A model generated the notes under the pieces. It saw nothing but the letters and a program-made list of their open reading frames with translations. It had not been told where the DNA came from and did not search any database. A DNA stretch of 64,000 nt from Bacillota bacterium (GTDB lineage Bacteria > Bacillota > Clostridia > Oscillospirales > Ruminococcaceae), in NCBI GenBank assembly GCA_029572815.1, contig JAKPUQ010000060.1, forward strand, positions 13,274-77,273, given 5' to 3'. The position numbers and the translations under genes are program-made. The stretch's first letter is position 1. Each line of letters opens with the position of its first letter. Shown one piece after another: positions 12,540 to 64,000 of this stretch.

Positions 12540-13391
12540 ATGAAAATTCTTGTTGTCGGACTCGGACTAATTGGTGGTTCACTTTGTAAGGCACTGAAAA
12601 AATACACATATCACACGGTGGCAGGCTGCGATATAAACCATGATATCGAAAATGCAGCTCTCCGCGATGTTGCTCTTGACCAGGTATTTGACGGAAACTA
12701 TGAGGGCTATGATATAATAGTTATCTCACTTTTCCCTGAGGGAACTGAGCGCTTTTTTGCGGAAAACGCTGCAAAGATCGGAAAAAACACCATCATTACT
12801 GATGTTTGCGGTATCAAAGGCGATTTCTCACAGCGTATGAAGAATATCGCAGAGGCTAACGGTCTCAGGTATCTCGGTATACACCCCATGGCAGGCAAGG
12901 AGTTCGGCGGATACTATAACAGTACAGCTGATCTGTTCGTAAAAGCCAACTTTATAGTTGCGCCTTTTGAGGACAGTACACAGTCTGATGTGGAAATGCT
13001 CAGCGGACTTGCTAAGGAAATAGGTGCAGGCAAGATCGTAGTGACAAGCCCCGAAAACCATGACAAGATGATAGCTTATACCTCTCAGCTTGCACATATA
13101 GTGTCCAGTGCATATGTAAAAAGCCCCGAGTTGGGGCTTGAATGTGGATTCAGCGGAGGAAGCTTCCAGGATATGACCCGTATAGCTACCATGAATGAGA
13201 AAATGTGGACCGACCTGTTCATGCAGAACAGGGAACACCTTCAGTATGAGCTGGACACCCTTATCGAAAACCTTCAGAAATACAGCGAAGCTCTGAAAAA
13301 CGGGGACGCCGACAGAATGAAGGCTCTTATCGCAGAGGGACGCGAACTCAAGGAGGAAAACCTCCGCCACAGAGTCGGTCAGCCTAACTGA
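12540..13391 (+). CDS. tyrA: Prephenate dehydrogenase
   Basis: GLGLIGGSL, HPMAGKE, HDKMIAYTSQLAH, GGSFQDMTRIA. Confidence 0.93.
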   Translation: MKILVVGLGLIGGSLCKALKKYTYHTVAGCDINHDIENAALRDVALDQVFDGNYEGYDIIVISLFPEGTERFFAENAAKIGKNTIITDVCGIKGDFSQRMKNIAEANGLRYLGIHPMAGKEFGGYYNSTADLFVKANFIVAPFEDSTQSDVEMLSGLAKEIGAGKIVVTSPENHDKMIAYTSQLAHIVSSAYVKSPELGLECGFSGGSFQDMTRIATMNEKMWTDLFMQNREHLQYELDTLIENLQKYSEALKNGDADRMKALIAEGRELKEENLRHRVGQPN

Positions 13392-45232: not shown

Positions 45233-46964
45233 ATGAAGAAATTACTTAAATACCTCAAAAATTATAAGAAGGAACTTGTTCTCGGACCTTTTTTCAAGCT
45301 TCTGGAAGCTGTTTTTGAGCTTATAGTGCCTGTTGTCATGGCAAGGATAATCGATAATGGCATCGGCAATAACGATACTGCTTACATTATAAAGATGAGC
45401 GGACTTATTGTTGTTCTCGGTGCCAGCGGGCTCTGTTTCGCCCTGACCTGTCAGTATTTTGCGGCAAAGTGTGCATACGGATTTGGCACTGAGCTCAGGG
45501 CTGACCTGTACAGGCATATCAATTCGCTCTCATATGAAAGTATAGACAAGATAGGAACATCATCCCTTGTAAACAGGCTCACCAATGACACAAATACGGT
45601 TCAGAATGGTGTGAATATGTTTATCAGACTTGCTGTAAGAGCTCCTTTCCTTGTTATCGGTGCTGCTGTTATGGCAGTGACTATCGATCTTAAGCTTTCA
45701 CTTGTTTTCTTCGTTGTTGCGCCTCTGATCTCACTTGTTATTTTTTTATAATGAAAAAAATGTTGCGATGTACAAAAAAACTCAGCAGTGTCTTGACAGA
45801 GCTTCGCTTCTTACCAGTGAAAGTCTTGAAGGCGCAAGAGTCATCAGAGCTTTTTCTCGTCAGAATGAGGAGATCGATGAATTCAAGGAAGCCGTTGATG
45901 ATATATCCGAAAATTCCATAGCTGTCGGAAAAATATCTGCCATTCTTAATCCGGTTGCATTCATGGTTATGAATCTGGGGATTGTTGCTGTTATCTGGTT
46001 CGGCGGAAAGAGGGTAGATGTCGGCAGACTCACACAGGGTGAGCTTACGGCTTTTACCAATTATATGACACAGATACTGCTTGCGCTGGTGGTTCTGGCT
46101 AATCTTATCGTGATATTTACAAAGGCTTTTGCCTCTGCAAACAGGATAAGTGAAGTATTTTCGCTCCTTCCTGAGGAGAACGGTACAGTTTGTGAGATAA
46201 AAGATGAGAAAAAAGCGATTATCGAATTCAGCAGCGTGTCATTTGCATATGCTGGTGCAGGAGATTATTCTCTGAGGAATATAAGTTTTTCTGTTATGGG
46301 GGGACAGATGCTTGGCATCATAGGCGGTACAGGCTGCGGCAAATCGACTCTTGCTAACCTGATCCCCTGTTTCTACAGAGCGACAGAAGGAGCAGTAAAT
46401 GTTTTCGGGGTCAATGTAAATGATATTGACAATGAGCAGCTCAGACGCAGGATAGGTATAGTTCCTCAAAAGGCCACCTTGTTTACAGGTACTATCCGCG
46501 AAAATATGAGGTGGCGTAAGTCGGATGCTACCGATGATGAGATAATTTCAGCCTTGAAGACTGCACAGGCGTGGGACTTCGTCAGCAATAGTCCTGATGG
46601 CCTTGATACTGTTATATCCCAGGGCGGCAAAAATCTCTCAGGCGGTCAGAAACAGCGTATTTCCATTGCAAGAGCTCTTGTAGGAAGCCCTGATATCGTA
46701 ATTCTTGATGATTCAACAAGCGCTCTGGATTATAAGACGGATCTTGCTTTCAGACGCGCACTGAGCGAGGACCTTCCTGATACAACTGTTGTAATGATCT
46801 CGCAGAGGACAACTTCTCTTAAGAATGCCGACAAGATCATTGTTATGGACGAAGGAGAGGCGGTTGGTATAGGTACTCATGAAGAGCTTGTACGAAACTG
46901 CGATGTCTATAATGAGATATACAGGTCACAGATGAACGAAAAAGGAGGCAGTACGGATGCTTAA
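45233..46964 (+). pseudogene. Heterodimeric ABC exporter subunit split by a frameshift near 45741-45760 (probably an assembly homopolymer error)
   Basis: The TMD begins in ORF 45233-45751 and continues in ORF 45735-46964, which has GGTGCGKST, LSGGQKQR and LDD. The break lies in adjacent T7 and A7 runs. Confidence 0.85.
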
Positions 46965-48723: not shown

Positions 48724-48752
48724 ACTTATACCAAATTTACTTTGTTTAATTC

Positions 48753-48781
48753 TTGACAAACTGAATGAAATGTTGTACAAT
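48753..48781 (+). promoter_or_regulatory. Aconitase operon promoter
   Basis: TTGACA-17 nt-TACAAT with an extended TG. Confidence 0.75.
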
Positions 48782-52266: not shown

Positions 52267-52914
52267 ATGTCAAAAAACTCAATATCCAACTCTGTCATAA
52301 GAAGGCTTCCGAGGTACTATCGCTTTCTCGGGGAGCTCGAGAACAACGGATATGTTCGTATATCTTCAAGAGAGCTGTCGGAGAAAATGGGACTTACCGC
52401 TTCACAGATTAGGCAGGACTTTAACTGCTTCGGTGAATTCGGACAGCAGGGCTATGGCTATAATGTAAGTGATCTTCGCCTTGAGATCGGCAAGATCCTC
52501 GGCCTTGACAAGCAGACGCCGATGATCCTTCTTGGTGCGGGAAATCTCGGAAAAGCAATTGCTGCCCACATAGATTTCCATAATAAAGGCTTTGACCTTA
52601 TTGGTGCCTTTGACATCAACGAAGAGCTTATTGGCAAGGAAATAGGCGAGCTTAAGGTCAGAAGTATTGACGAGCTCAGCTCCTTCTGTGCCGAAAACAA
52701 GCCTGTTGCGGCTATTCTCTGCGTTCCGATGCAGGCTGCCGAAAAGCTTGTAAATACACTTATCGGCTGCGGCATCAAAGCTTTCTGGAACTTTACACAT
52801 TATGACCTCAAGGTCACTCATAAGGATGTGGCAGTTGAGAATGTACACCTCGGCGATAGTCTTACAACTCTTTCTTACGGACTTAACAATATAGAATTGA
52901 CTGAAAAAAAGTGA
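52267..52914 (+). CDS. rex: Redox-sensing transcriptional repressor Rex
   Basis: RRLPRYYR, ISS-EL, QIRQDFNCFG-FGQQGYGY, GAGNLG. Confidence 0.96.
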   Translation: MSKNSISNSVIRRLPRYYRFLGELENNGYVRISSRELSEKMGLTASQIRQDFNCFGEFGQQGYGYNVSDLRLEIGKILGLDKQTPMILLGAGNLGKAIAAHIDFHNKGFDLIGAFDINEELIGKEIGELKVRSIDELSSFCAENKPVAAILCVPMQAAEKLVNTLIGCGIKAFWNFTHYDLKVTHKDVAVENVHLGDSLTTLSYGLNNIELTEKK

Positions 52915-53434: not shown

Positions 53435-54811
53435 ATGGATTTTCGTATCGAACATGATTCAATGGGCGAAGTAAAGGTGCCTGCTGATAAGTACTGGGCT
53501 GCACAGACTGAACGCAGTCATGAGAATTTTCTTATCGGTGTAGGCATAGAGACCATGCCTAGAGAGATCACTCATGCCTTTGGAATCCTTAAAAAGGCTG
53601 CAGCTCTTTCAAATCATGAGCTTAAGCCTGAAAAAATGACCGATGAAAAGCTGAATGCTATATCTCAGGCGTGTGACGAGGTTATAAGTGGCTCACTCAA
53701 TGATCATTTCCCCCTTGTAGTTTGGCAGACAGGAAGCGGCACTCAGTCAAATATGAACGCCAACGAGGTCATTGCCAACCGTGGAAATGAGATCGCGGGA
53801 GCAAAGCTTCTTCACCCTAATGATGATATAAACATGAGCCAGTCTTCAAATGATACCTTTCCGACTGCAATGCACATCGCAGCAGTTATCGCTCTTGAAG
53901 ACAAGGTGATTCCGGCTGTTGATGTACTCATCGAAACCTTCAAGCACCTTGAGACCGAAAACGAAGGTATAGTAAAGAGCGGAAGAACACATCTCCAGGA
54001 TGCAACTCCTATAAAGTTCTCTCAGGAAATAAGCGGTTGGAGAGCTTCGCTTGAAAAGGACAAAAAGATGATACTTTCAGCCTGCGAAGAGCTTAAAGAG
54101 CTTGCCCTCGGAGGTACAGCTGTCGGAACAGGTCTGAATGCTCCCAAGGGGTTTGCTGAGAAGGCTGCTGAGAATATAAGCAAGCTTACAGGAAAAAAGT
54201 TTATCACTTCTCCCAATAAATTCCATTCCCTCACATCAAAGGACGAGATAGTTTTTGCACACGGAGCTCTCAAGGCTCTGGCAGCTGATATGATGAAGAC
54301 CGCCAACGATGTAAGATGGCTTGCTTCAGGTCCCAGAGATGGTCTTGGAGAGATCTTCATTCCCGAAAACGAGCCCGGTTCGTCTATCATGCCCGGTAAG
54401 GTCAATCCCACACAGTGCGAACAGGTAACTATGGTAGCCGTTCAGGTAATGGGCAATGATGTTGCAGTCGGTATGGCTGCTTCACAGGGCAATTTTGAAC
54501 TGAATGTATTCATGCCTGTGTGTGCATATAACTTCTTACAGTCTGCAAGGCTGCTTGCTGAGTCCATCATGTCTTTCAACAAGAACTGTGCCGTGGGCAT
54601 TAAGGCAAATAAGGAAAAAATGCATCATAATCTTTACAATTCCCTTATGCTTGTTACAGCTCTTAATCCCTATATCGGATATGAGAATGCTGCAAAGACA
54701 GCCAAGAAGGCGTTCAAGGATAATATTTCTCTGAAGGAAGCCTGCGTTGAACTCGGATTTCTTACTGCCGAAAGGTTCGACGAGGTGTTCCATCCTGAAG
54801 AAATGGTTTGA
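53435..54811 (+). CDS. fumC: Class II fumarate hydratase
   Basis: HDSMG, WQTGSGTQSNMN, SSNDTFPT, GRTHLQDATP, GSSIMPGKVNPTQCE. Confidence 0.97.
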   Translation: MDFRIEHDSMGEVKVPADKYWAAQTERSHENFLIGVGIETMPREITHAFGILKKAAALSNHELKPEKMTDEKLNAISQACDEVISGSLNDHFPLVVWQTGSGTQSNMNANEVIANRGNEIAGAKLLHPNDDINMSQSSNDTFPTAMHIAAVIALEDKVIPAVDVLIETFKHLETENEGIVKSGRTHLQDATPIKFSQEISGWRASLEKDKKMILSACEELKELALGGTAVGTGLNAPKGFAEKAAENISKLTGKKFITSPNKFHSLTSKDEIVFAHGALKALAADMMKTANDVRWLASGPRDGLGEIFIPENEPGSSIMPGKVNPTQCEQVTMVAVQVMGNDVAVGMAASQGNFELNVFMPVCAYNFLQSARLLAESIMSFNKNCAVGIKANKEKMHHNLYNSLMLVTALNPYIGYENAAKTAKKAFKDNISLKEACVELGFLTAERFDEVFHPEEMV

Positions 54812-54835: not shown

Positions 54836-55633
54836 ATGGAAACTTTTACCTATTACCCTGGCTGTACGCTGAGAACCAAAGCAAAGGACCTTGATACATA
54901 TGCAAGGTTCTCTGCGGAGGCTCTCGGTATCTCTCTTGAGGAGCCTGCTGACTGGCAGTGCTGCGGCGGAGCTTATACTACGGCTAAAGACGAGATCGCT
55001 ACTAAGCTTTCAGCTGTAAGAACTCTCAACTCGGCAAAGGTCAGCAACAGACCTCTTATCACAGTCTGTTCAGCCTGTCATAATGTTATCAAACAAACTA
55101 ATTATGATATTCTCCACGACGAGGAGGTGGCTTCCAAGGTCAATAATTACCTGAAGCTCGATGAACCTTATAACGGGGAGACCACTGTATACCACTATCT
55201 TGAGATGCTCCGTGATGTAGTCGGATTTGACAATCTTGCACAGAAGGTAGTAAATCCTTTCAAGGGCAAAAAGATAGCTGCATACTATGGATGTCTGCTG
55301 CTTCGTCCTTCAAAGACTCTTGCTATGGACGATCCCGAAAATCCTTCGATCATGGAAGATTTTATCAAGGCTATCGGCGGAACTCCAGTCATATATGCTC
55401 AGAGGAATGAATGCTGCGGAGGCTACATTACACTCGAAGACAAGGATCAGGCAGCTAAGAGAAGCGGAGCTGTTATGAGCTCTGCTGCTGATCAGGGAGC
55501 TGATATGATCATCACTGCCTGTCCTCTTTGCTTGTATAATCTCAAGAAGAACTCAGGCTCAGAGCTCCCTGTTTACTACTTTACCGAGCTTCTCGCAGAG
55601 GCTCTCGGCGTGAAGGAGGAAAGCAATGAATAA
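54836..55633 (+). CDS. hdrB: Heterodisulfide reductase subunit B-like (two CCG domains)
   Basis: YYPGC...WQCCGG...CSAC and YYGC...ECCGG...ACPLC. Confidence 0.92.
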   Translation: METFTYYPGCTLRTKAKDLDTYARFSAEALGISLEEPADWQCCGGAYTTAKDEIATKLSAVRTLNSAKVSNRPLITVCSACHNVIKQTNYDILHDEEVASKVNNYLKLDEPYNGETTVYHYLEMLRDVVGFDNLAQKVVNPFKGKKIAAYYGCLLLRPSKTLAMDDPENPSIMEDFIKAIGGTPVIYAQRNECCGGYITLEDKDQAAKRSGAVMSSAADQGADMIITACPLCLYNLKKNSGSELPVYYFTELLAEALGVKEESNE

Positions 55634-56009
55634 GAATTTAAAGGAACAGGTCCTTCGTGCCAGCGGAGTAAATGTACTCAAGTGTATGCGCTGCGGAAAA
55701 TGTTCGGGAACCTGCCCCTCATATGACGAGATGGAATATCATCCCCATCAGTTCGTCTACATGGTAGAGCGCGGCGATATTGAGACTCTGATGAATTCAA
55801 AATCCATATACAAGTGCCTTACCTGCTTTGCCTGTGTTGACAGATGTCCCAGAAACGTAGAGCCTGCTAAAGTAGTGGAAGCTGTAAGACTTGCGGCTGT
55901 ACGTCAGCAGGGGAATAATCATATGAATCCCAATCAGATACCTGAAATGCTTGACGACGATCTGCCTCAGCAGGCTATCGTAACAGCTTTCAGAAAGTAC
56001 ATTAAGTAA
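55626..56009 (+). CDS. hdrC: Heterodisulfide reductase subunit C-like (2x[4Fe-4S])
   Basis: CMRCGKCSGTCP and CLTCFACVDRCP. Confidence 0.9.
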   Translation: MNKNLKEQVLRASGVNVLKCMRCGKCSGTCPSYDEMEYHPHQFVYMVERGDIETLMNSKSIYKCLTCFACVDRCPRNVEPAKVVEAVRLAAVRQQGNNHMNPNQIPEMLDDDLPQQAIVTAFRKYIK

Positions 56010-56024
56010 GGAGGAGATCACACT

Positions 56025-58016
56025 ATGCAGAGAATAGGCGTTTTCGTCTGTCATTGCGGAACGAATATCGCTGCAACAGTCGATGTTAAAACTGTTGCGG
56101 AAGCTCTCGGTCACGAGCCCGGCGTGGTCATCTCTCAGGATTACCAGTATATGTGCTCTGAATCGGGACAGAATCTTGTAAAGAATGCTATTAAGGAACA
56201 TAATCTTACAGGTGTTGTTATCTGTTCGTGTTCACCAAGAATGCATGAAAATACATTCAGAAAGGCAGCTGCGGCTGCCGGACTCAATCCCTATCTCGTT
56301 GAGATAGCAAATATCCGTGAGCAGTGCTCGTGGATACACAAGGATATTGCAACTGCCACTGATAAGGCAATAATCCTCGGTAAGGCAGCAGTTGCGAAGG
56401 TACACCTCAATGCTCCTCTTACAGCAGGCGAGAGTCCTGTAGCAAAGAGAGCTCTTGTCATAGGCGGAGGAATCGCAGGTATACAGACTGCCCTCGACAT
56501 CGCTGAGGCAGGCTTTGACGTTGATATCGTTGAGAAGCAGCCTACAATAGGCGGTAAGATGGCACAGATAGATAAGACCTTCCCCACACTTGACTGTGCT
56601 GCTTGTATCCTTACTCCTAAAATGGTTGAGGCTTCACAGAATGAGCATATAACTATCCACTCATTCAGTGAGGTCACAGATGTAAAGGGCTTTGTAGGAA
56701 ACTTTACAGTTACTATCAAGAAAAAGGCACGTTACGTTGATGAGACCAAGTGCACAGGCTGCGGTCTCTGTACGGAGAAATGTCCCATGAAGAAGGTGCC
56801 AAATGAGTTCAATATGGGACTTGACAACAGGACGGCTGTTTATATTCCTTTTGCTCAGGCGGTTCCGAAGGTAGCAACTATCGACCCTAACTACTGCATG
56901 ATGCTCAAGAACGGAAAGTGCGGTGTCTGCTCAAAGGTCTGCTCAGTTGGAGCTATCGACTATAAGCAGCAGGACCGTTTCATCGAGCAGAAGTATGGTG
57001 CTATCGTAGTTGCAACAGGCTTCAATCCTATCAAGCTTGATAAGTATGATGAATTCGCATATAATCAGTGCCCTGACGTTGTTACTTCTCTGGAGCTTGA
57101 ACGTCTTATGAACGCTGCTGGTCCAAACGGCGGAACACTTCTTCGTCCTTCCGATAAGACACATCCCCACAAGATAGTATTTGTACAGTGTGTAGGCTCC
57201 AGATGCGACGACAGCAAGGGTAAGCCTTATTGTTCAAAGATCTGCTGTATGTACACCGCCAAGCACGCAATGCTTATCCGTGAGAAATACCCTGATACAG
57301 AGGTATATGTATTCTACATAGATGTTCGTACTCCCGGCAAGAACTTCGATGAATTCTACCGCCGTGCAGTTGAGCAGTACAATGTTCACTACATAAAGGG
57401 CATGGTCGGAAAGGTAACACCTCGTTCCGACGGCAAGATAGATGTACAGGCTTCTGATCTTCTCGCCAATGAACAGCTCCATATTGATGCTGATATGGTT
57501 GTCCTGGCAGCAGCCATCGAGCCTGACAAGACTGCACGTCCTCTTGCTACTATGCTTACAACACAGATGGACACCAACGACTTCTTTACAGAAGCTCATC
57601 CTAAGCTTCGTCCTGTAGAGAGCGCTACAGCGGGTATATTCCTATCAGGTGCTTGTCAGGGACCCAAGGACATTCCCGAGACAGTTGCTCAGGCAAGTGC
57701 AGCAGCTGCAAAGGCTATCGGTCTTCTTGTGAAGAACAGCATAACCTGCAATCCTTGTGTTGCTCATTCAAATGAGCTTATGTGCAACGGATGCTCGTCC
57801 TGTGAAAAGGTTTGTCCCTACAGAGCTATCACTTATGAAGATAAGGAATTCAGAATGCCTGACAGAACAACAGCTATACGTCGTGTTGCAAGTGTCAACC
57901 CTGCGGTATGCCAGAGCTGCGGTGCTTGTACAGTAGCTTGTCCTTCAGGCGCTATGGACCTTAACGGCTTCTCTAACAGTCAGATCATGGCGGAGGTAGA
58001 CGCAATATGCAAGTAA
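56025..58016 (+). CDS. hdrA: Heterodisulfide reductase subunit A (FAD, Fe-S)
   Basis: GVFVCHCG-NI, CSCSP, NIREQCSW, GGGIAG, KTFPTLDCAACILTPKM, an inserted ferredoxin domain, QCVGSR...CSKICCMY, GACQGPKDI and a C-terminal ferredoxin. Confidence 0.96.
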   Translation: MQRIGVFVCHCGTNIAATVDVKTVAEALGHEPGVVISQDYQYMCSESGQNLVKNAIKEHNLTGVVICSCSPRMHENTFRKAAAAAGLNPYLVEIANIREQCSWIHKDIATATDKAIILGKAAVAKVHLNAPLTAGESPVAKRALVIGGGIAGIQTALDIAEAGFDVDIVEKQPTIGGKMAQIDKTFPTLDCAACILTPKMVEASQNEHITIHSFSEVTDVKGFVGNFTVTIKKKARYVDETKCTGCGLCTEKCPMKKVPNEFNMGLDNRTAVYIPFAQAVPKVATIDPNYCMMLKNGKCGVCSKVCSVGAIDYKQQDRFIEQKYGAIVVATGFNPIKLDKYDEFAYNQCPDVVTSLELERLMNAAGPNGGTLLRPSDKTHPHKIVFVQCVGSRCDDSKGKPYCSKICCMYTAKHAMLIREKYPDTEVYVFYIDVRTPGKNFDEFYRRAVEQYNVHYIKGMVGKVTPRSDGKIDVQASDLLANEQLHIDADMVVLAAAIEPDKTARPLATMLTTQMDTNDFFTEAHPKLRPVESATAGIFLSGACQGPKDIPETVAQASAAAAKAIGLLVKNSITCNPCVAHSNELMCNGCSSCEKVCPYRAITYEDKEFRMPDRTTAIRRVASVNPAVCQSCGACTVACPSGAMDLNGFSNSQIMAEVDAICK

Positions 58017-58453
58017 ATGAAAATAAAGAGTTTGAACCGCTGATCGTTGCCTTCTGCTGTAACTGGTGCTCATATGCAGGAGCCGATCTTTCGGGAACAA
58101 ACAGACTTAATTATCCTACAAATGTAAAGATAATCAGAGTGCCCTGCTCATGCAGAGTAAACCCTATGTTCATTCTCAGAGCCTTCCAGCGCGGCGCTGA
58201 CGGAGTTATCCTCTGCGGCTGTCACCCCGGAGACTGCCATTATACATCAGGCAATTATTTCACAAGAAGAAGAATGACACTCCTGTTCAGTATGCTTGAT
58301 TTTCTCGGAATAGAGCGTGACAGAACAAGGGTAGAGTGGGTATCGGCTGCTGAAGGAGCTAAATTCGCGGCTACAATGAATGAGTTCACTGAGGCAGTAA
58401 AGAAGCTCGGACCTAACCGCAGATTGGAGGATTTACGATGCAGGAAGCAATGA
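58007..58453 (+). CDS. mvhD: MvhD/FlxD-like [2Fe-2S] subunit
   Basis: AFCCNWCSYAGAD, IRVPCSCRV, GADGV---GCHPGDCHY--GN, WVSAAEG. Confidence 0.92.
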   Translation: MQVNENKEFEPLIVAFCCNWCSYAGADLSGTNRLNYPTNVKIIRVPCSCRVNPMFILRAFQRGADGVILCGCHPGDCHYTSGNYFTRRRMTLLFSMLDFLGIERDRTRVEWVSAAEGAKFAATMNEFTEAVKKLGPNRRLEDLRCRKQ

Positions 58454-59409
58454 TAAACAGAGCAAAGCAGCTTCTGGCTGACGGCACCGTAAACCGTGTA
58501 ATCGGCTGGAAGAGGGGAGAGTTCGTGTATGATGTTACTCCCGCAATTTTTGAAACTGCCGAGGAGCTTGATGCTGAGTTCGTTTACGACGACTTTACGG
58601 CAGCAAACGTATCAAAATATCTTGTAAAGGAATGTAAAAAGGAAGGCAAGATTCTTGCTTTTTTGAAGCCCTGTGATACTTACAGCTTTAATCAGCTTAC
58701 CAAGGAGCACAGAGTTGTACGCGATAACGTTTATATTATAGGAATTCCCGGTGGTCCCAAGCTTGATGCCGAAAAGATAAAGGCAAAGGGAATCACAGGC
58801 ATACTTGGCGCTAAAAACGATAACGGAACATTTGTTATAGAAACCCTCTATGGTGAGGAGAAAATGCCTTATTATGAAGCCCTCAGTACAAAGTGTGAGA
58901 GCTGCAAGAGCAAAAAACACGTTGTGTATGACGAGCTTATCGGTGATGACGGAGAAGTTCTTGAGTCTGACCGCTTCGATATGGTGGAGAAGCTTGAGAA
59001 TATGTCTGCTCAGGAAAGATATGACTTCTGGAGAGAGCAGCTTTCCAAATGTATCCGCTGCAATGCCTGCCGTAATGTCTGTCCTGCCTGCACTTGTGAA
59101 AAGTGCGTGTTCGATAATCCTGACTCAGGCGTTGAGAACAAGGCTCCCGCAGACAGCTTTGAGGAGAATATGTTCCACATAATCCGTGCATTCCATGTTG
59201 CGGGAAGATGTACGGACTGCGGCGAGTGCTCGAGAGTTTGCCCTCAGAATATCCCGCTTCATCTGCTCAACAGGAAGTTCATCAAGGACATCAATTCTCT
59301 GTATGGCAATTATCAGGCAGGTGAGGATACTACCTCAAGAGCTCCTCTTAACGATTACAAGACCGATGACTGCGAAGCAAGTATCGTTCATGAAAGGGGA
59401 GTTGAGTAA
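58438..59409 (+). CDS. flxC: FlxC-like 4Fe-4S protein
   Basis: CIRCNACRNVCPAC-C--C and RCTDCGECSRVCP; position matches hdr-flxDCBA clusters. Confidence 0.75.
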   Translation: MQEAMINRAKQLLADGTVNRVIGWKRGEFVYDVTPAIFETAEELDAEFVYDDFTAANVSKYLVKECKKEGKILAFLKPCDTYSFNQLTKEHRVVRDNVYIIGIPGGPKLDAEKIKAKGITGILGAKNDNGTFVIETLYGEEKMPYYEALSTKCESCKSKKHVVYDELIGDDGEVLESDRFDMVEKLENMSAQERYDFWREQLSKCIRCNACRNVCPACTCEKCVFDNPDSGVENKAPADSFEENMFHIIRAFHVAGRCTDCGECSRVCPQNIPLHLLNRKFIKDINSLYGNYQAGEDTTSRAPLNDYKTDDCEASIVHERGVE

Positions 59410-60428
59410 TGCTGAAAATATCACTTGATAGAATAAATGAACTCTTTGAAGCTATCTCAGCTTCTCAGACGCTGTATATCCCCACAGACCGTGAGGACGG
59501 TGCTGCTGAATACAGAAAGTACGAGAGTGGCATGAAGCTCAGTAATGCCCTCAATACAGTAAGAAGTGCCAAGGACTTCTTCTTTCCTCAGACCGAAAAC
59601 CTCGTTGACTTCAAAATGGAAGGCAAAAATATCGAGGTAATAGATATTCGCAAGGAATCAGAAGATTTTGTTATCTTTGGAGCACGTGCCTGCGATGCAA
59701 GAAGCTTCACTATTCTTGACAAGGTCTTTCTTGCTGAACCTGTGGACAGCTACTATAAGACACGCCGCGAGCATGGTACAGTTGTAACTATGGCTTGTAC
59801 ACGTCCTTCCGAGACCTGCTTCTGCGGAGTTTTCGGCATAGACGCTACAGCTCCCGAGGGCGACGCTGCCTGCTGGAGCGACGGTGAGAGCATTTTCTTT
59901 GAGGCTCACAACGAAAAGGGAAAGAAATTCATTGACTCTATCTCATCTCTTCTTGAGGATGGAGATACCGCAAAGCTTGAGGAGACACGTGAAAAGACCA
60001 GAGCTATTCTTAAAAAGCTTCCTCTTGCGGGTCTTTCTACCGAGTCATTCGGCGGCGAACGCATGATGGAGCACTTCAACTCTGAAAAGTGGGGAGAACT
60101 TTCAGAGAGCTGTCTCGGCTGCGGAACCTGTACATTTGTATGCCCCACCTGCCAGTGCTATGACATTAAGGACTTCAATACCGGTCACGGCATAAAGCGC
60201 TTCCGCTGCTGGGATTCATGTATGTACTCCGATTTCACAAAGATGGCTCATGGTAATCCCAGACTTACCCAGCTTGAGCGCTTCCGCCAGAGATTTATGC
60301 ATAAGCTTGTGTATTTCCCTGCGAACAATAACGGCGAATTCGGATGTGTAGGCTGCGGAAGATGCTTATCAAAGTGTCCGATTTCCATGAATATCGTCAA
60401 GGTAATGAAAGCATTGGAGGTAAAGTGA
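59409..60428 (+). CDS. flxB: FlxB/AsrA-like 4Fe-4S protein
   Basis: G-R-CD, C----ETCFC, CLGCGTCTFVCPTCQC, RCWDSC, CVGCGRCLSKCP. Confidence 0.78.
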   Translation: MLKISLDRINELFEAISASQTLYIPTDREDGAAEYRKYESGMKLSNALNTVRSAKDFFFPQTENLVDFKMEGKNIEVIDIRKESEDFVIFGARACDARSFTILDKVFLAEPVDSYYKTRREHGTVVTMACTRPSETCFCGVFGIDATAPEGDAACWSDGESIFFEAHNEKGKKFIDSISSLLEDGDTAKLEETREKTRAILKKLPLAGLSTESFGGERMMEHFNSEKWGELSESCLGCGTCTFVCPTCQCYDIKDFNTGHGIKRFRCWDSCMYSDFTKMAHGNPRLTQLERFRQRFMHKLVYFPANNNGEFGCVGCGRCLSKCPISMNIVKVMKALEVK

Positions 60429-61255
60429 TGAATAATGATGCATTGATACCTTACATAGGAGTAGTTACCGATATAAGACAGGATACTCCCGACGTAAAGA
60501 CATTCAGGGTAGTTTCTCCTGAGGGCGGTAAGGTATTCGAGCATATGCCCGGACAGTGCGCTATGCTCTCGATCCCCGGTGTCGGCGAGGGTATGTTCTC
60601 AATAACTTCTTCTCCTACAAATAAGGATTTTATGGAGTTCAGCATAAAGAAGTGCGGCTGCCTTACAACATGGCTTCACGCTATGGACGTTGGTCAGCAG
60701 ATAACTATCCGCGGACCTTACGGAAATCATTTCCCGGTCGAGACTGAACTCAAGGGCAAAGACCTGCTGTTTATCGCAGGCGGTATCGGACTTGCACCGC
60801 TTCGTTCAGTTATCAATTATGTCCGCGACAACCGTTCTGACTACGGCGATGTGCAGATAGTTTACGGTTCACGTTCAAAGGACGATCTCGTTGACTACAA
60901 GGAGATAATTGACGAGTGGATGGCTGACGAGGGAATAGAGGTAAACCTCACAATAGACAATCCTCAGGAAGGCTGGGACGGTCATGTCGGATTCGTTCCA
61001 AATTATGTCAAGGAGCTCAATCCTTCCATAAATAAAACAGTTCTTATATGCGGTCCTCCCATAATGATAAAGTTTACTCTTGCAGGACTGAAAGAGCTTG
61101 GCTTTACAGAGACTCAGGTATATACAACTATGGAGCTTCGCATGAAGTGTGCCGTAGGAAAGTGCGGACGCTGCAATATCGGCAGCAAGTACGTCTGCAA
61201 GGACGGACCTGTTTTCCGCTTTGATCAGCTTGATGAGCTGCCTGATGAATATTAA
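60428..61255 (+). CDS. flxA: FlxA/AsrB-like FAD/NAD(P)H oxidoreductase with a [2Fe-2S] cluster
   Basis: PGQ--M, IRGPYGN-F, AGGIGLAPLR, CGPPIM, MKCAVGKCGRC...CKDGPVF. Confidence 0.82.
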   Translation: MNNDALIPYIGVVTDIRQDTPDVKTFRVVSPEGGKVFEHMPGQCAMLSIPGVGEGMFSITSSPTNKDFMEFSIKKCGCLTTWLHAMDVGQQITIRGPYGNHFPVETELKGKDLLFIAGGIGLAPLRSVINYVRDNRSDYGDVQIVYGSRSKDDLVDYKEIIDEWMADEGIEVNLTIDNPQEGWDGHVGFVPNYVKELNPSINKTVLICGPPIMIKFTLAGLKELGFTETQVYTTMELRMKCAVGKCGRCNIGSKYVCKDGPVFRFDQLDELPDEY

Positions 61256-61270
61256 GGAGGAGAATTTAGC

Positions 61271-61954
61271 ATGGATAATATGTTGAATGTTTACCTGTTC
61301 GGCAAGAGATATCAGGTGCCCGCAGGTCTTACGATAATGACAGCTATGGAATATGCAGGCTACGAGCTTGTAAGAGGCTGCGGCTGCCGTAACGGCTTCT
61401 GCGGTGCCTGCGCTACCATTTACAGAATAAAGGGAGAGATAGAGCTCCACGGATGCCTTGCCTGTCAGACTGAGATACAGGAAGGAATGTACGTTGCCAC
61501 ACTTCCTTTCTTCCCGCTTGAAAAGAGAGTATACAATATCGAGGAGATAAAGCCCACACAGCAGATAATGATGCAGCTCTATCCCGAGATATACAGCTGT
61601 ATCGGCTGCAATGCCTGCACAAAGGCTTGTACTCAGGAGCTCAATGTTATGCAGTATATCGCATACGCTCAGAGAGGCGAGTATGACAAGTGTGCAGAGG
61701 AGAGCTTTGACTGCGTAATGTGCGGCGTATGTTCATCACGCTGTCCCGCAGGTATCTCTCATCCTCAGGTAGCAATGCTTGCAAGACGCCTCAACGGAAA
61801 GTATATCGCTCCCGAGTGCGGTCATCTTGCAGACAGGGTAAATGAGATAAACGAGGGTATCTTTGATGAGAAGATAGCCGAGCTTATGACAAAGGCTGTA
61901 GATAACCTTGAAGAGATCAAGGATATGTACAACCATCGTGAGATCGAGAAGTAA
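61271..61954 (+). CDS. frdB: Fumarate reductase/SDH iron-sulfur-like subunit ([2Fe-2S] plus 2x[4Fe-4S])
   Basis: CRNGFCGAC...CLAC, then CIGCNACTKAC and CVMCGVCSSRCP. Confidence 0.75.
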   Translation: MDNMLNVYLFGKRYQVPAGLTIMTAMEYAGYELVRGCGCRNGFCGACATIYRIKGEIELHGCLACQTEIQEGMYVATLPFFPLEKRVYNIEEIKPTQQIMMQLYPEIYSCIGCNACTKACTQELNVMQYIAYAQRGEYDKCAEESFDCVMCGVCSSRCPAGISHPQVAMLARRLNGKYIAPECGHLADRVNEINEGIFDEKIAELMTKAVDNLEEIKDMYNHREIEK

Positions 61955-61966
61955 GGGGGAGAGAAG

Positions 61967-63568
61967 ATGTACAAGATAGAAAAGCTTAATGAACTTGCAA
62001 AGGTAGTTGCAGAGAAAAGAGCTGAGAATGCAGCTCTCGAACCCAGACGTATGACAGCTGAGGAAAAGGACGACCTTCTTGCTCATTTCCACCCCGATTA
62101 CAAGCAGGACGAGTTCACAGTTCTTTCAGCAGGCGTAAATAAGGGCGATAAGGTCCCCACACAGCTTGCAGCTCTTCTTCAGGGCAAGAGCAGGATCACT
62201 GCTGCCGATGTAGACCTGTCAGCTCCCGATTATGATACAGATGTACTTATTATCGGAGGCGGCGGTGCTGGTGCTTCAGCAGCTATCGAGGCTGACGAAG
62301 CTGGTGTCAAGACAATGATCGTTACTAAGCTTCGTATCGGTGATGCAAATACAATGATGGCAGAGGGCGGTATCCAGGCTGCTGACAAGCCCAATGACTC
62401 TCCCGCTATCCACTTTCTTGACGCTTTCGGCGGCGGACATTTCGCTGCTAAGCCCGAGCTCGTAAAGAAGCTTGTTACAAAGGCTCCTGAGGCTATCCAG
62501 TGGCTCAATAAGCTTGGTGTAGAGTTCGACAAGGAACCAGATGGTACAATGGTCACAACTCACGGCGGCGGTACTTCGAGAAAGAGAATGCACGCTGCAA
62601 AGGACTACTCAGGTGCTGAGATAATGCGTACACTTCGCGATGAGGTCATCAATCGTGGTATTCCCGTTATTGACTTCACAGCTGCGATCGAGATAATCCT
62701 TGACGAAAACGGCAAGGCAGCAGGCGCTGTTCTTATGAACATGGAGACCAAGGAGCTTCTTGTTGCAAGAGCGAAGACGGTTATAATCGCAACAGGCGGT
62801 GCAGGAAGACTTCACTATCAGGGCTTCCCAACATCAAACCACTACGGCGCTACAGCTGATGGACTTATACTCGGCTACCGTGTAGGTGCAAAGCTCCTTT
62901 ATGCAGACACACTCCAGTATCATCCTACAGGAACAGGCTACCCTGAGCAGATATTCGGCGCACTGGTTACCGAGAAGGTACGTTCGCTTGGTGCAAAGCT
63001 TGTCAACATAGACGGTGATGTATTCATGCATCCCCTTGAGACAAGAGATGTTACCGCAGCTTCTATTATCCGCGAGTGTACAGCCCGCGACAAGGGTATA
63101 GAGACTAACCTCGGAAAGGCTATCTGGCTCGATACACCTATGATAGAACTTATCCACGGTGAAGGAACTATCGAAAAGCGTATACCTGCCATGATGAGGA
63201 TGTTCGGCAAGTACGGTATCGATATCCGCAAGGAGCCTATCCTTGTTTATCCCACACTTCACTACCAGAATGGCGGTCTTGATATTACTGATGACTGTGC
63301 AACAGGCGTAGAGAATCTTTACGCAGCAGGTGAGGTAGCAGGCGGCATCCACGGACGTAACCGTCTCATGGGCAATTCTCTCCTTGATGTTATCGTATTC
63401 GGCAGAAATGCAGGAATCTACGCATCAGCCAAGGCTAAGGAGTCTTCTGAGCCTCAGGGACTTACTCTCGGACATATTGAGAAGTTCAATAAGGAACTTG
63501 AAGCTGCAGGTGTTGCAGGCGACACAGCTTCACCTATGCTTCTTCCTCATTACGCAAGAAAGAAATAA
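61967..63568 (+). CDS. frdA: Soluble fumarate reductase flavoprotein-like subunit
   Basis: GGGGAG; dicarboxylate-site motifs QYHPT, ETRD, HYQNGG and HGRNRLMGNSL; no His for covalent FAD (ANTMMAEGG). Confidence 0.82.
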   Translation: MYKIEKLNELAKVVAEKRAENAALEPRRMTAEEKDDLLAHFHPDYKQDEFTVLSAGVNKGDKVPTQLAALLQGKSRITAADVDLSAPDYDTDVLIIGGGGAGASAAIEADEAGVKTMIVTKLRIGDANTMMAEGGIQAADKPNDSPAIHFLDAFGGGHFAAKPELVKKLVTKAPEAIQWLNKLGVEFDKEPDGTMVTTHGGGTSRKRMHAAKDYSGAEIMRTLRDEVINRGIPVIDFTAAIEIILDENGKAAGAVLMNMETKELLVARAKTVIIATGGAGRLHYQGFPTSNHYGATADGLILGYRVGAKLLYADTLQYHPTGTGYPEQIFGALVTEKVRSLGAKLVNIDGDVFMHPLETRDVTAASIIRECTARDKGIETNLGKAIWLDTPMIELIHGEGTIEKRIPAMMRMFGKYGIDIRKEPILVYPTLHYQNGGLDITDDCATGVENLYAAGEVAGGIHGRNRLMGNSLLDVIVFGRNAGIYASAKAKESSEPQGLTLGHIEKFNKELEAAGVAGDTASPMLLPHYARKK

Positions 63569-63575
63569 TTAAAAA

Positions 63576-63596
63576 GGGACGCCGTAATGGCGTCCC
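63576..63596. other. GC-rich hairpin with no U tract on the + strand
   Basis: GGGACGCC-GTAAT-GGCGTCCC, preceded by A5 and followed by GAAAT. Confidence 0.6.
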
Positions 63597-63634: not shown

Positions 63635-64000
63635 ATGGATTTTTTCAACGGAATTCTTTCTATTCACGGCGTTTCATTCCTGATGATCTCGGTAATTGCC
63701 ATTGCTGCTCTCGGTTACATTCTCGGAAGGATTACAATAAAAGGTATCTCTCTCGGTACCGCAGGCGTATTTATAGTGGCTCTTATCTATGGCTGTATTT
63801 TCTATAAACAGCTTTCTGATGAAATAAATACCGACTTCGTAGGAAATGCCCTGAAGATAGTTGACAATCTCGGACTTATTCTTTTTGTGACAGCTGTTGG
63901 CTTTATTGCAGGACCTAATTTTTTCGGCAATTTCAAGAAAAACTTCAAATCCTATGTGCTTCTGGCGATAATTATTATACTCAGCGGCGGACTTGCATGT
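63635..64000 (+). CDS. AspT/YidE/YbjL-family transporter, 3'-truncated by the window edge (not in the ORF track)
   Basis: My translation from ATG 63635 is MDFFNGILSIHGVSFLMISVIAIAALGYILGRITIKGISLGTAGVFIVAL...LGLILFVTAVGFIAGPNFF. G--LG-I-I-GISLG-AGV and GL-LFV-AVG---GP-FF are family signatures. Confidence 0.85.
   Translation, partial: MDFFNGILSIHGVSFLMISVIAIAALGYILGRITIKGISLGTAGVFIVALIYGCIFYKQLSDEINTDFVGNALKIVDNLGLILFVTAVGFIAGPNFFGNFKKNFKSYVLLAIIIILSGGLAC

Follow-up and report, generated by a model that had tools for sequence, protein, structure and literature searches.

A 64,000-nucleotide stretch of a rumen Ruminococcus genome (GenBank assembly GCA_029572815.1, contig JAKPUQ010000060.1, forward-strand positions 13,274 to 77,273; hereafter the window) carries a gene cluster in which all seven subunit types of an FlxABCD-HdrABC complex are followed by genes for a fumarate reductase-like iron-sulfur protein (FrdB-like) and flavoprotein (FrdA-like). 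Judging from gene content and conservation, we narrowly favor the view that the products of these nine genes, hdrBCA-flxDCBA-frdBA, form a single soluble, multi-subunit NADH:fumarate oxidoreductase, which would be the succinate-forming enzyme throughout the genus and in which electrons would pass directly through HdrB. According to the list of open reading frames (ORFs), the genes belong to an uninterrupted, mostly overlapping series on the plus strand that begins at position 53435 and runs past the end of the window, in the order hdrB-hdrC-hdrA-flxD-flxC-flxB-flxA-frdB-frdA, with a class II fumarase gene before the block and a gene for an AAEx-family exporter after it (Table 1). Names were assigned by Pfam and NCBIfam profile searches with curated cut-offs, the domain content of the seven ORFs shows the clustered FlxABCD-HdrABC set to be complete, and the coordinates given for the hdrB and frdB-like ORFs in an earlier note on this DNA were confirmed. 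The closest named protein matches are R. flavefaciens proteins annotated as 'FAD-dependent oxidoreductase', at 95-96% identity.

The overall idea of such an operon is not new, having been proposed in 2019-2020 for Pseudoclostridium (Hungateiclostridium) thermosuccinogenes. In that organism's 'succinate operon', a fumarate hydratase gene is combined with seven genes for Flx-Hdr, two for a fumarate reductase and one for a putative succinate transporter; the operon is about 4-fold upregulated under CO2 limitation (Koendjbiharie et al., 2020; PMC7282089). As cited in the same paper, a 2019 preprint (10.20944/preprints201912.0288.v1) proposes that a new kind of fumarate reductase takes part in electron bifurcation, and older data indicate that H2 abolishes succinate formation in P. 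thermosuccinogenes. The operon studied here matches the published description, with its fumarase, seven Flx-Hdr genes, two reductase genes and transporter, and the proposed function is also shared: reduction of fumarate by NADH, coupled to that of ferredoxin. The two cases differ in the organism, and PMC7282089 does not settle how HdrB is linked to the reductase.

HdrB retains both of its CCG motifs with all ten cysteines, as the earlier note had read them: C10-x31-C42C43-x34-C78xxC81 and C153-x39-C193C194-x34-C229xxC232. The Pfam CCG domain (PF02754) matches two stretches of the protein at 77.2 bits (cut-off 20.6), and the ten cysteines are invariant among 51 HdrB sequences from frdBA-containing loci. 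The protein aligns over its full length with methanogen HdrB (E 3.5e-34), and its AlphaFold2 (AF2) model, with a mean predicted local distance difference test (pLDDT) score of 90.4, superposes on methanogen HdrB structures (8RWN_B, 5ODC_B and 7BKB_B) with template modeling (TM) scores of 0.88-0.89 at 2.4-2.6 Å. Two motifs of the form CX31-39CCX35-36CXXC, comprising the ten cysteines, and the HdrB fold thus identify it, as far as sequence and model go, as an HdrB homolog, though not one assignable to reduction of the coenzyme B-coenzyme M heterodisulfide (CoM-S-S-CoB). Against the corresponding equivalog (TIGR03288) it reaches 129.5 bits where 345.15 are required, and its top NCBIfam match, SdhE (NF042965), at 142.3 bits also lies below the cut-off for membership (500). 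In a tree that included only one non-Frd outgroup, the HdrBs of the Clostridia nine-gene operons form one clade (99).

The 227-residue FrdB-like protein consists, again in agreement with the earlier note, only of a [2Fe-2S] part (ligands C39-x4-C44-x2-C47...C65) and two [4Fe-4S] motifs (C110xxC113xxC116xxxC120 and C148xxC151xxC154xxxC158P), and direct reading of its sequence reveals no CCG motif. These twelve cysteines are invariant in 25 diverse and 59 locus-derived homologs, and alignments of homologs show neither a CCG domain nor any additional conserved cysteine in the FrdB-like or the FrdA-like protein. SdhB/FrdB subunits carry a [3Fe-4S] cluster besides a [2Fe-2S] and a [4Fe-4S] cluster; here the third cluster motif has four cysteines, and the protein scores 27.4 bits with the SdhB/FrdB model TIGR00384 (cut-off 88). 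Its AF2 model (pLDDT 89.7) is matched by Foldseek piecewise to domains of RnfC, SdhB/FrdB and HdrC with TM scores of 0.25-0.34; E. coli FrdB is matched at 0.30 only, the domains agreeing and the whole-chain superposition being poor. These scores are low because the two domains match different proteins, and the Foldseek result on the predicted model supports the architecture only.

The FrdA-like protein has TfrA as its best NCBIfam match (341 bits) and is a flavoprotein of the SdhA/FrdA type, with a FAD_binding_2 domain and the catalytic residues retained. Its alignment with E. coli FrdA (3p4p_A) keeps the His of HPT, the TEkvR motif, the His of HYqNGG and the Arg of hgrNRL, and offers two RD motifs as candidates for the proton-donor Arg. 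Because an Asn replaces the FAD-linking residue His44 of E. coli FrdA, the FAD is predicted to be bound non-covalently, and Pfam finds no match to the C-terminal helical domain PF02910 in the protein. Non-covalent FAD and the lack of a C-terminal helical domain are typical features of soluble reductases operating in the direction of succinate. That fumarate is the substrate is supported by the retained catalytic residues together with the fumC product, which passes the class II fumarase cut-off. The pairing of FrdB with FrdA is confirmed by the existence of a natural FrdB-FrdA fusion (P0181, 727 aa); no fusion of FrdB with a CCG domain occurs among the 150 best representatives. We also considered and rejected two other assignments: the FrdA-like protein is not taken for an L-aspartate oxidase, since the genome encodes a separate NadB (contig C3; PRK06175, 463 bits) that has no iron-sulfur partner, nor the lyase 5' of hdrB for an aspartase, since it passes the fumC cut-off and not that of aspA. 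The FrdA-like protein begins with a cysteine-free extension of about 90 residues before the FAD fold (residues 1-90, window 61967-62236), which possibly docks to the Hdr/Flx part. Related FrdA-like genes align with that of the window over its whole length.

The nine genes are tightly linked in Clostridia. Their order from hdrB to frdA is identical in all 90 Clostridia loci that span the region, which come from many families, and fumC lies directly 5' of hdrB in 76 of 90 related loci and the AAEx exporter gene directly 3' of frdA in 50 of 80. Of the 399 Clostridia genomes sampled, 97 have the FrdB-like protein, at 64-80% identity and with nothing between that range and noise, and relatives of it are present in at least 571 species genomes; the scan of relatives' genomes retained only close relatives (at least 74% identity). 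A search of the same 399 genomes for HdrB gave 102 positives, 96 of which also have FrdB. In the only genome with FrdB alone the contig is broken inside the operon; the five with an HdrB ortholog alone are all incomplete assemblies or involve contig edges, and one further genome has solely a divergent HdrB (32% identity). Within Clostridia, an HdrB of this kind thus practically never occurs without the FrdB-like gene. In-frame stops seen inside some HdrB matches of this search are not disruptions of the gene; there the alignment ran on past the natural stop codon.

More distant relatives were sought in metagenomes, in a scan seeded with homologs of 40-50% identity whose contigs give gene neighborhoods only, without taxonomy. 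At 45-55% identity, Hdr genes stand beside frdBA in about 28 of about 40 informative loci. The arrangement hdrC-hdrB-frdB-frdA, either alone or followed by hdrA-mvhD, recurs in 11 of the metagenome loci, and in most cases the hdrB and frdB genes of distant loci are joined by a stop/start overlap (ATGA) or lie no more than about 30 nt apart. Other architectures are hdrCB...hdrA-flxDCBA-frdBA and hdrA-mvhD-frdBA. The electron-input module thus varies while the Hdr-to-FrdBA link recurs, as would be expected of Hdr-type complexes that use FrdBA as their terminal acceptor module. Natural HdrC-HdrB fusion ORFs also occur in frdBA clusters (L185:976-2412, 479 aa; L213:1670-2941, 424 aa).

The rest of the genome, a 98.3% complete draft on which the following absences rest, was searched for partners that HdrB might otherwise serve. 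A separate CCG-containing TfrB was looked for and is absent, the CCG domain being found in HdrB and in no second protein of the genome. DsrC/TusE (PF04358) is missing from the window, as the earlier note had said of DsrC, and from the whole genome as well. So is ComA (PF02679), required for the synthesis of coenzyme M (CoM), in a search whose control match was found in M. jannaschii; this bears out the expectation that free coenzyme M (CoM-SH) is not the electron donor here. No conserved gene for a small carrier accompanies the operon in the 90 syntenic loci, and the Hdr and Flx genes are single-copy in the genome. A UbiA/MenA-family prenyltransferase, present in all 14 control genomes, is likewise undetected in the genome, and from its gene content the organism apparently makes neither menaquinone nor heme O itself.

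We infer both the assembly of the nine products into one complex and the stoichiometry of its reaction, expected to be 2 NADH : 1 fumarate : 2 one-electron ferredoxin equivalents. In the proposed mechanism, FlxA would oxidize NADH and pass the electrons by way of FlxB, FlxC and FlxD to the FAD of HdrA, which, by analogy with HdrABC-MvhAGD and FlxABCD-HdrABC, probably bifurcates. One electron would go uphill from HdrA to ferredoxin, to be re-oxidized by Rnf or hydrogenases; the other would go downhill through the two [4Fe-4S] clusters of HdrC and the two non-cubane clusters of HdrB and, across a putative HdrB-FrdB contact, to the two [4Fe-4S] clusters and the [2Fe-2S] cluster of the FrdB-like protein, which would hand it to the non-covalent FAD of FrdA and finally to fumarate. 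HdrC, HdrB and FrdB would jointly take the part that one polypeptide, TfrB, plays in methanogens; with electrons entering from HdrA and not from CoM-SH or coenzyme B (CoB-SH), a diffusible thiol would not be needed. Succinate would leave through the AAEx transporter, and Rex would tie expression to NADH/NAD+. Ferredoxin reduction is probable by analogy, HdrA being homologous and Rnf and hydrogenases being available to draw electrons from ferredoxin: RnfD (380 bits) is encoded on the operon's own contig (C116:2840-3760), about 10 kb before the start of the window, a second, weaker RnfD/NqrB-like gene lies on contig C205, and the genome encodes two [FeFe] hydrogenases. We see an even chance that a canonical HdrB here acts as a pure relay from HdrC to a docked FrdB, which would make this the first HdrABC-type bifurcating complex to use a C=C bond, that of fumarate, and not a disulfide as its high-potential acceptor.

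Several observations weigh against this path through HdrB. By retaining its ten cysteines HdrB looks catalytic and not wire-like, its model is nearer to methanogen HdrB than to the relay-type domains of LutA (TM 0.72) and EtfD (TM 0.66), and A80 is a small residue at the position where EMO has a histidine blocking the substrate cavity. In mirror-tree partial correlations over 94 loci, which recovered HdrA-HdrC (0.42), HdrA-FlxD (0.30) and FrdB-FrdA (0.30), the HdrB-FrdB pair gave -0.09, although the known HdrB-HdrC contact was likewise missed (-0.06), which makes that value uninformative. Two metagenome loci, L184 (3-9849) and L191, place frdBA beside giant HdrA-like proteins (>940 to 1100 aa), MvhD, an FrhB/FdhB-like iron-sulfur protein and a double HdrC-like protein but lack a CCG gene within 20 kb of frdBA, so that HdrB may not be obligatory for feeding FrdB; in these loci electrons would enter the same reductase module through another architecture. 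A literature search found no purified or assayed enzyme of this type and nothing on a 'bifurcating fumarate reductase'.

The earlier note had offered two options, a thiol carrier or direct wiring of HdrB to FrdB, and the evidence leans to direct electron transfer, with a bypass from HdrC to FrdB as a third wiring that the note had not considered. Unlikely, though the best of the alternatives, is that HdrB works as in methanogens and Desulfovibrio, reducing a small-molecule or protein disulfide, and that the resulting thiols then feed the fumarate reductase. The complete ligand set of HdrB, its canonical fold and the apparently unblocked position of the CoM site in comparison with EMO would all suit such a role, and the authors of the P. 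thermosuccinogenes study wrote of electrons going to 'ferredoxin (and thiols)' (PMC7282089). Two four-gene hdrC-hdrB-frdB-frdA clusters (L196 and L220) have no HdrA or Flx gene nearby and need an electron entry site, which in TfrB is the CCG domain. A thiol made by HdrB could not be re-oxidized, however, because HdrB is the only CCG protein of the genome and the FrdB-like and FrdA-like proteins have neither a CCG domain nor extra conserved cysteines; it is this lack of a thiol-oxidizing site in FrdBA that makes us prefer direct wiring. The absence of DsrC/TusE and ComA from the genome, and of a conserved small carrier gene from the 90 loci, also argues against a carrier.

Somewhat less likely again is a branch at HdrC, in which FrdB would dock on HdrC/HdrA and HdrB would be a structural, regulatory or alternative-acceptor side branch. 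This would account for L184 and L191, where HdrA-like, MvhD and HdrC-like proteins are joined to frdBA without a CCG gene in 20 kb, and the FrdB-like protein has a two-cluster domain of its own that resembles HdrC and RnfC. The mirror-tree correlations of FrdB, weak evidence given the missed HdrB-HdrC contact, are also highest with FrdA, FlxA and HdrA and not with HdrB. Yet in Clostridia HdrB is present in every spanned block (90/90) with every cluster ligand kept, translational coupling joins hdrB to frdB in many distant lineages, and the lack of HdrB near frdBA in L176, L184 and L191 describes the contig neighborhood and not the genome, where HdrB could be encoded elsewhere. Weighing these points, we give direct wiring through HdrB slightly better than even standing, ahead of a thiol or protein carrier and of the bypass.

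It is improbable that the two parts are co-transcribed but separate enzymes, with Flx-Hdr reducing another acceptor and an independent FrdBA being fed by ferredoxin or another donor. In favor of separate enzymes, L176 has frdBA without any Hdr or Flx gene in the 10 kb flanking it on each side; but the strict gene order (90/90), the co-occurrence (96/97) and the recurrence of Hdr genes beside frdBA across phyla while input modules vary all tell against such independence, as does the fact that the searches for CCG proteins, DsrC/TusE and ComA revealed no alternative Hdr acceptor in the genome.

Outside the window, the genome also encodes a conventional SdhC-SdhA-SdhB set on contig C73 (1626-4413; locus L011, C73:385-4413), comprising a 178-residue, His-rich anchor with five transmembrane segments, an SdhA of 518 residues with the C-terminal domain and an SdhB of 236 residues that passes TIGR00384 (122 bits against 88). 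That this set is the physiological fumarate reductase, and the FrdBA-like pair acts on some other substrate, is very improbable in spite of its full set of conventional parts, since it occurs in 1 of 18 other congeners (51% identity) against 16 of 18 for the FrdB-like protein, would be without endogenous quinone because no UbiA/MenA-family prenyltransferase was detected, and has as its competitor a pair with a bona fide fumarase gene on one side and that of an AAEx exporter on the other. The C73 set is probably an accessory or acquired locus, and its distribution compared with that of FrdB makes the Hdr-Flx-Frd operon the genus-wide candidate for succinate formation. Next to the C73 set lie an ArsR regulator gene and part of a gene for a heavy-metal P-type ATPase.

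The operon can be set beside several known systems, one of which is TfrAB, reportedly characterized by Heim et al. in 1998 as the thiol:fumarate reductase of Methanothermobacter. The earlier note had described TfrB as an iron-sulfur region fused to CCG domains and had suggested that HdrB and the short FrdB are a split version of it. The description fits: the TfrB model (NF004898, 488 positions) is matched in three pieces, by the FrdB-like protein at positions 19-92, by HdrC at 132-221 and by HdrB at 415-487. What stands of the suggestion is a functional unit of HdrB(C) and FrdB(A), seen in the synteny, the co-occurrence and the coupled hdrCB-frdBA genes; what does not stand is membership in the family. 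The three proteins score 39.8 (HdrB), 35.5 (FrdB-like) and 29.4 bits (HdrC) against a cut-off of 385, about an order of magnitude too low, HdrB is canonical, there is an extra HdrC domain, and the domains of what is one polypeptide in TfrB are spread over three genes. On sequence grounds, 'split TfrB' is therefore a functional analogy. TfrAB (NF004898/NF004900) resembles the present system in being soluble, in having the flavoprotein nearest to our FrdA-like protein, in its [2Fe-2S] and two four-Cys [4Fe-4S] motifs followed by two CCG domains, and in lacking a [3Fe-4S] cluster or quinone site. It differs in that the CCG domains are here on a separate protein, all scores against its family models lie far under the cut-offs, CoM biosynthesis is missing and electrons most likely come from HdrA, not from thiols. 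In TfrB, as in type E SdhB proteins, the third cluster has four cysteines and a CCG partner takes the place of a quinone site, a series of cofactors that recurs here.

With the FlxABCD-HdrABC of Desulfovibrio vulgaris the operon shares all seven subunit types, including an NADH-binding FlxA and an MvhD-like FlxD beside HdrA. The acceptor proposed there is DsrC (Ramos et al., 2015, as cited in PMC7282089), whereas here DsrC/TusE is lacking and two fumarate-reductase genes are invariably attached. The methanogen HdrABC-MvhAGD and related complexes (PDB 5ODC, 8RVU and 7BKB) have an HdrB homologous over its full length, and homologous HdrA and HdrC, but the donor here would be NADH via Flx and not H2 or formate, and the acceptor most likely fumarate via FrdBA and not CoM-S-S-CoB. 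Type E SQR/MFR enzymes (SdhABE[F]) and the FrdABEF of Syntrophobacter fumaroxidans, which has no transmembrane subunit and is induced on fumarate, likewise combine an SdhB-type subunit having a four-Cys third cluster with an HdrB-like CCG partner (PMC2754724; PMC5947623); they differ in being thought to be quinone-linked (or possibly linked to DsrC) and in lacking HdrA and Flx. A structural precedent for an HdrBC-like module that acts only as a relay is EMO/EtfD, the ETF:(methyl)menaquinone oxidoreductase, in which cryo-electron microscopy shows non-cubane clusters that only relay electrons from the partner flavin, the distal cluster having lost one Cys ligand and a His blocking the substrate cavity (bioRxiv 10.64898/2026.08.18.745454, PDB 9OJN). 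The HdrB of the window differs from it in keeping all ten cysteines and the small residue, and resembles it at a TM score of 0.66 only.

Table 1. Positions in the window of the operon genes and associated features.
Feature	Position	Strand	Basis and remarks
rex, redox-sensing repressor	52267..52914	+	Pfam Put_DNA-bind_N + CoA_binding
Candidate Rex operator TTGTTAATTATATATCAA	53278..53295	+	2 mismatches vs TTGTTAANNNNTTAACAA; weak; 140 nt 5' of fumC
fumC, class II fumarate hydratase	53435..54811	+	TIGR00979 704.4 bits vs cut-off 664.75
hdrB, two CCG (non-cubane cluster) domains, ten Cys, 265 aa	54836..55633	+	Pfam, AF2 model
hdrC, 2x[4Fe-4S] ferredoxin-like subunit	55626..56009	+	Fer4_8/Fer4_17; TIGR03290 E 9.8e-20
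hdrA, FAD/Fe-S subunit, candidate bifurcating flavin	56025..58016	+	NF040770 HdrA2 801.5 bits, positions 1-641
flxD/mvhD	58007..58453	+	Pfam FlpD 186.6 bits
flxC-like Fe-S protein	58438..59409	+	Fer4 dicluster domains; place in block conserved
flxB-like Fe-S protein (AsrA/HydB-like)	59409..60428	+	Fer4_22 106.5 bits; sulfhydrogenase beta-like
flxA, NAD(P)H/FAD/[2Fe-2S] subunit	60428..61255	+	NAD_binding_1, FAD_binding_6, DHODB_Fe-S_bind
frdB-like Fe-S subunit, [2Fe-2S] + 2x four-Cys [4Fe-4S], 227 aa	61271..61954	+	Cys motifs, AF2 model
frdA-like flavoprotein, 533 aa	61967..63568	+	FAD_binding_2 (PF00890) 241.9 bits
GC-rich hairpin between frdA and exporter gene	63576..63596	.	Perfect 8-bp stem GGGACGCC-GTAAT-GGCGTCCC
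AAEx (AspT/YidE/YbjL) transporter, candidate succinate exporter	63635..64000	+	Pfam Asp-Al_Ex; 403 aa in contig, leaves window

The ORF of flxA opens at 60344, but relatives match it only from about residue 30 onward, which makes this an improbable start; translation likely begins at the ATG at 60428, which follows a ribosome-binding site (GGAGG) and overlaps the flxB stop codon (TGATG, 60426-60430). The hairpin after frdA has no T tract on the plus strand and may serve in processing or attenuation and so adjust the ratio of exporter to enzyme. Allowing 2 mismatches, the window has 3 Rex-box-like sites against 0.43 expected. A second 18-mer with 2 mismatches to the clostridial Rex box lies 5' of the aconitase gene (48742-48759), and rex itself sits between the aconitase operon and the fumC-hdr operon. 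Elsewhere in the window, neighboring genes carry dockerins, and an ABC transporter gene appears to be split (45233-46964): a 172-residue ORF covers ABC_membrane positions 2-159, and an overlapping 409-residue ORF with a TTG start covers positions 168-271 and the ATPase domain, an arrangement suggestive of a frameshift or of an error in assembly near 45735-45751.

The present analysis adds that HdrB and FrdB co-occur almost without exception in Clostridia, that hdrCB-frdBA forms a translationally coupled core in distant lineages, that neither a thiol partner nor quinone synthesis was found anywhere in the genome, and that this canonical HdrB contrasts with structurally characterized relay-type domains. 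The operon is found in about one quarter of the sampled Clostridia species, and sediment and gut metagenomes contain related frdBA-hdrCB units. R. flavefaciens is a main fiber degrader of the rumen and a producer of succinate, and the genome studied here is without quinone biosynthesis. If the proposed enzyme is real, it would explain how succinate is formed with conservation of energy, NADH and fumarate driving the reduction of ferredoxin and Rnf converting this into an ion gradient. It would also add a new class of acceptor to flavin-based electron bifurcation and give a concrete answer to the question of what Hdr complexes reduce in organisms that have neither CoM/CoB nor DsrC. Should HdrB indeed serve as a relay, the 'missing heterodisulfide' of the Hdr complexes in many bacteria and archaea would not exist.

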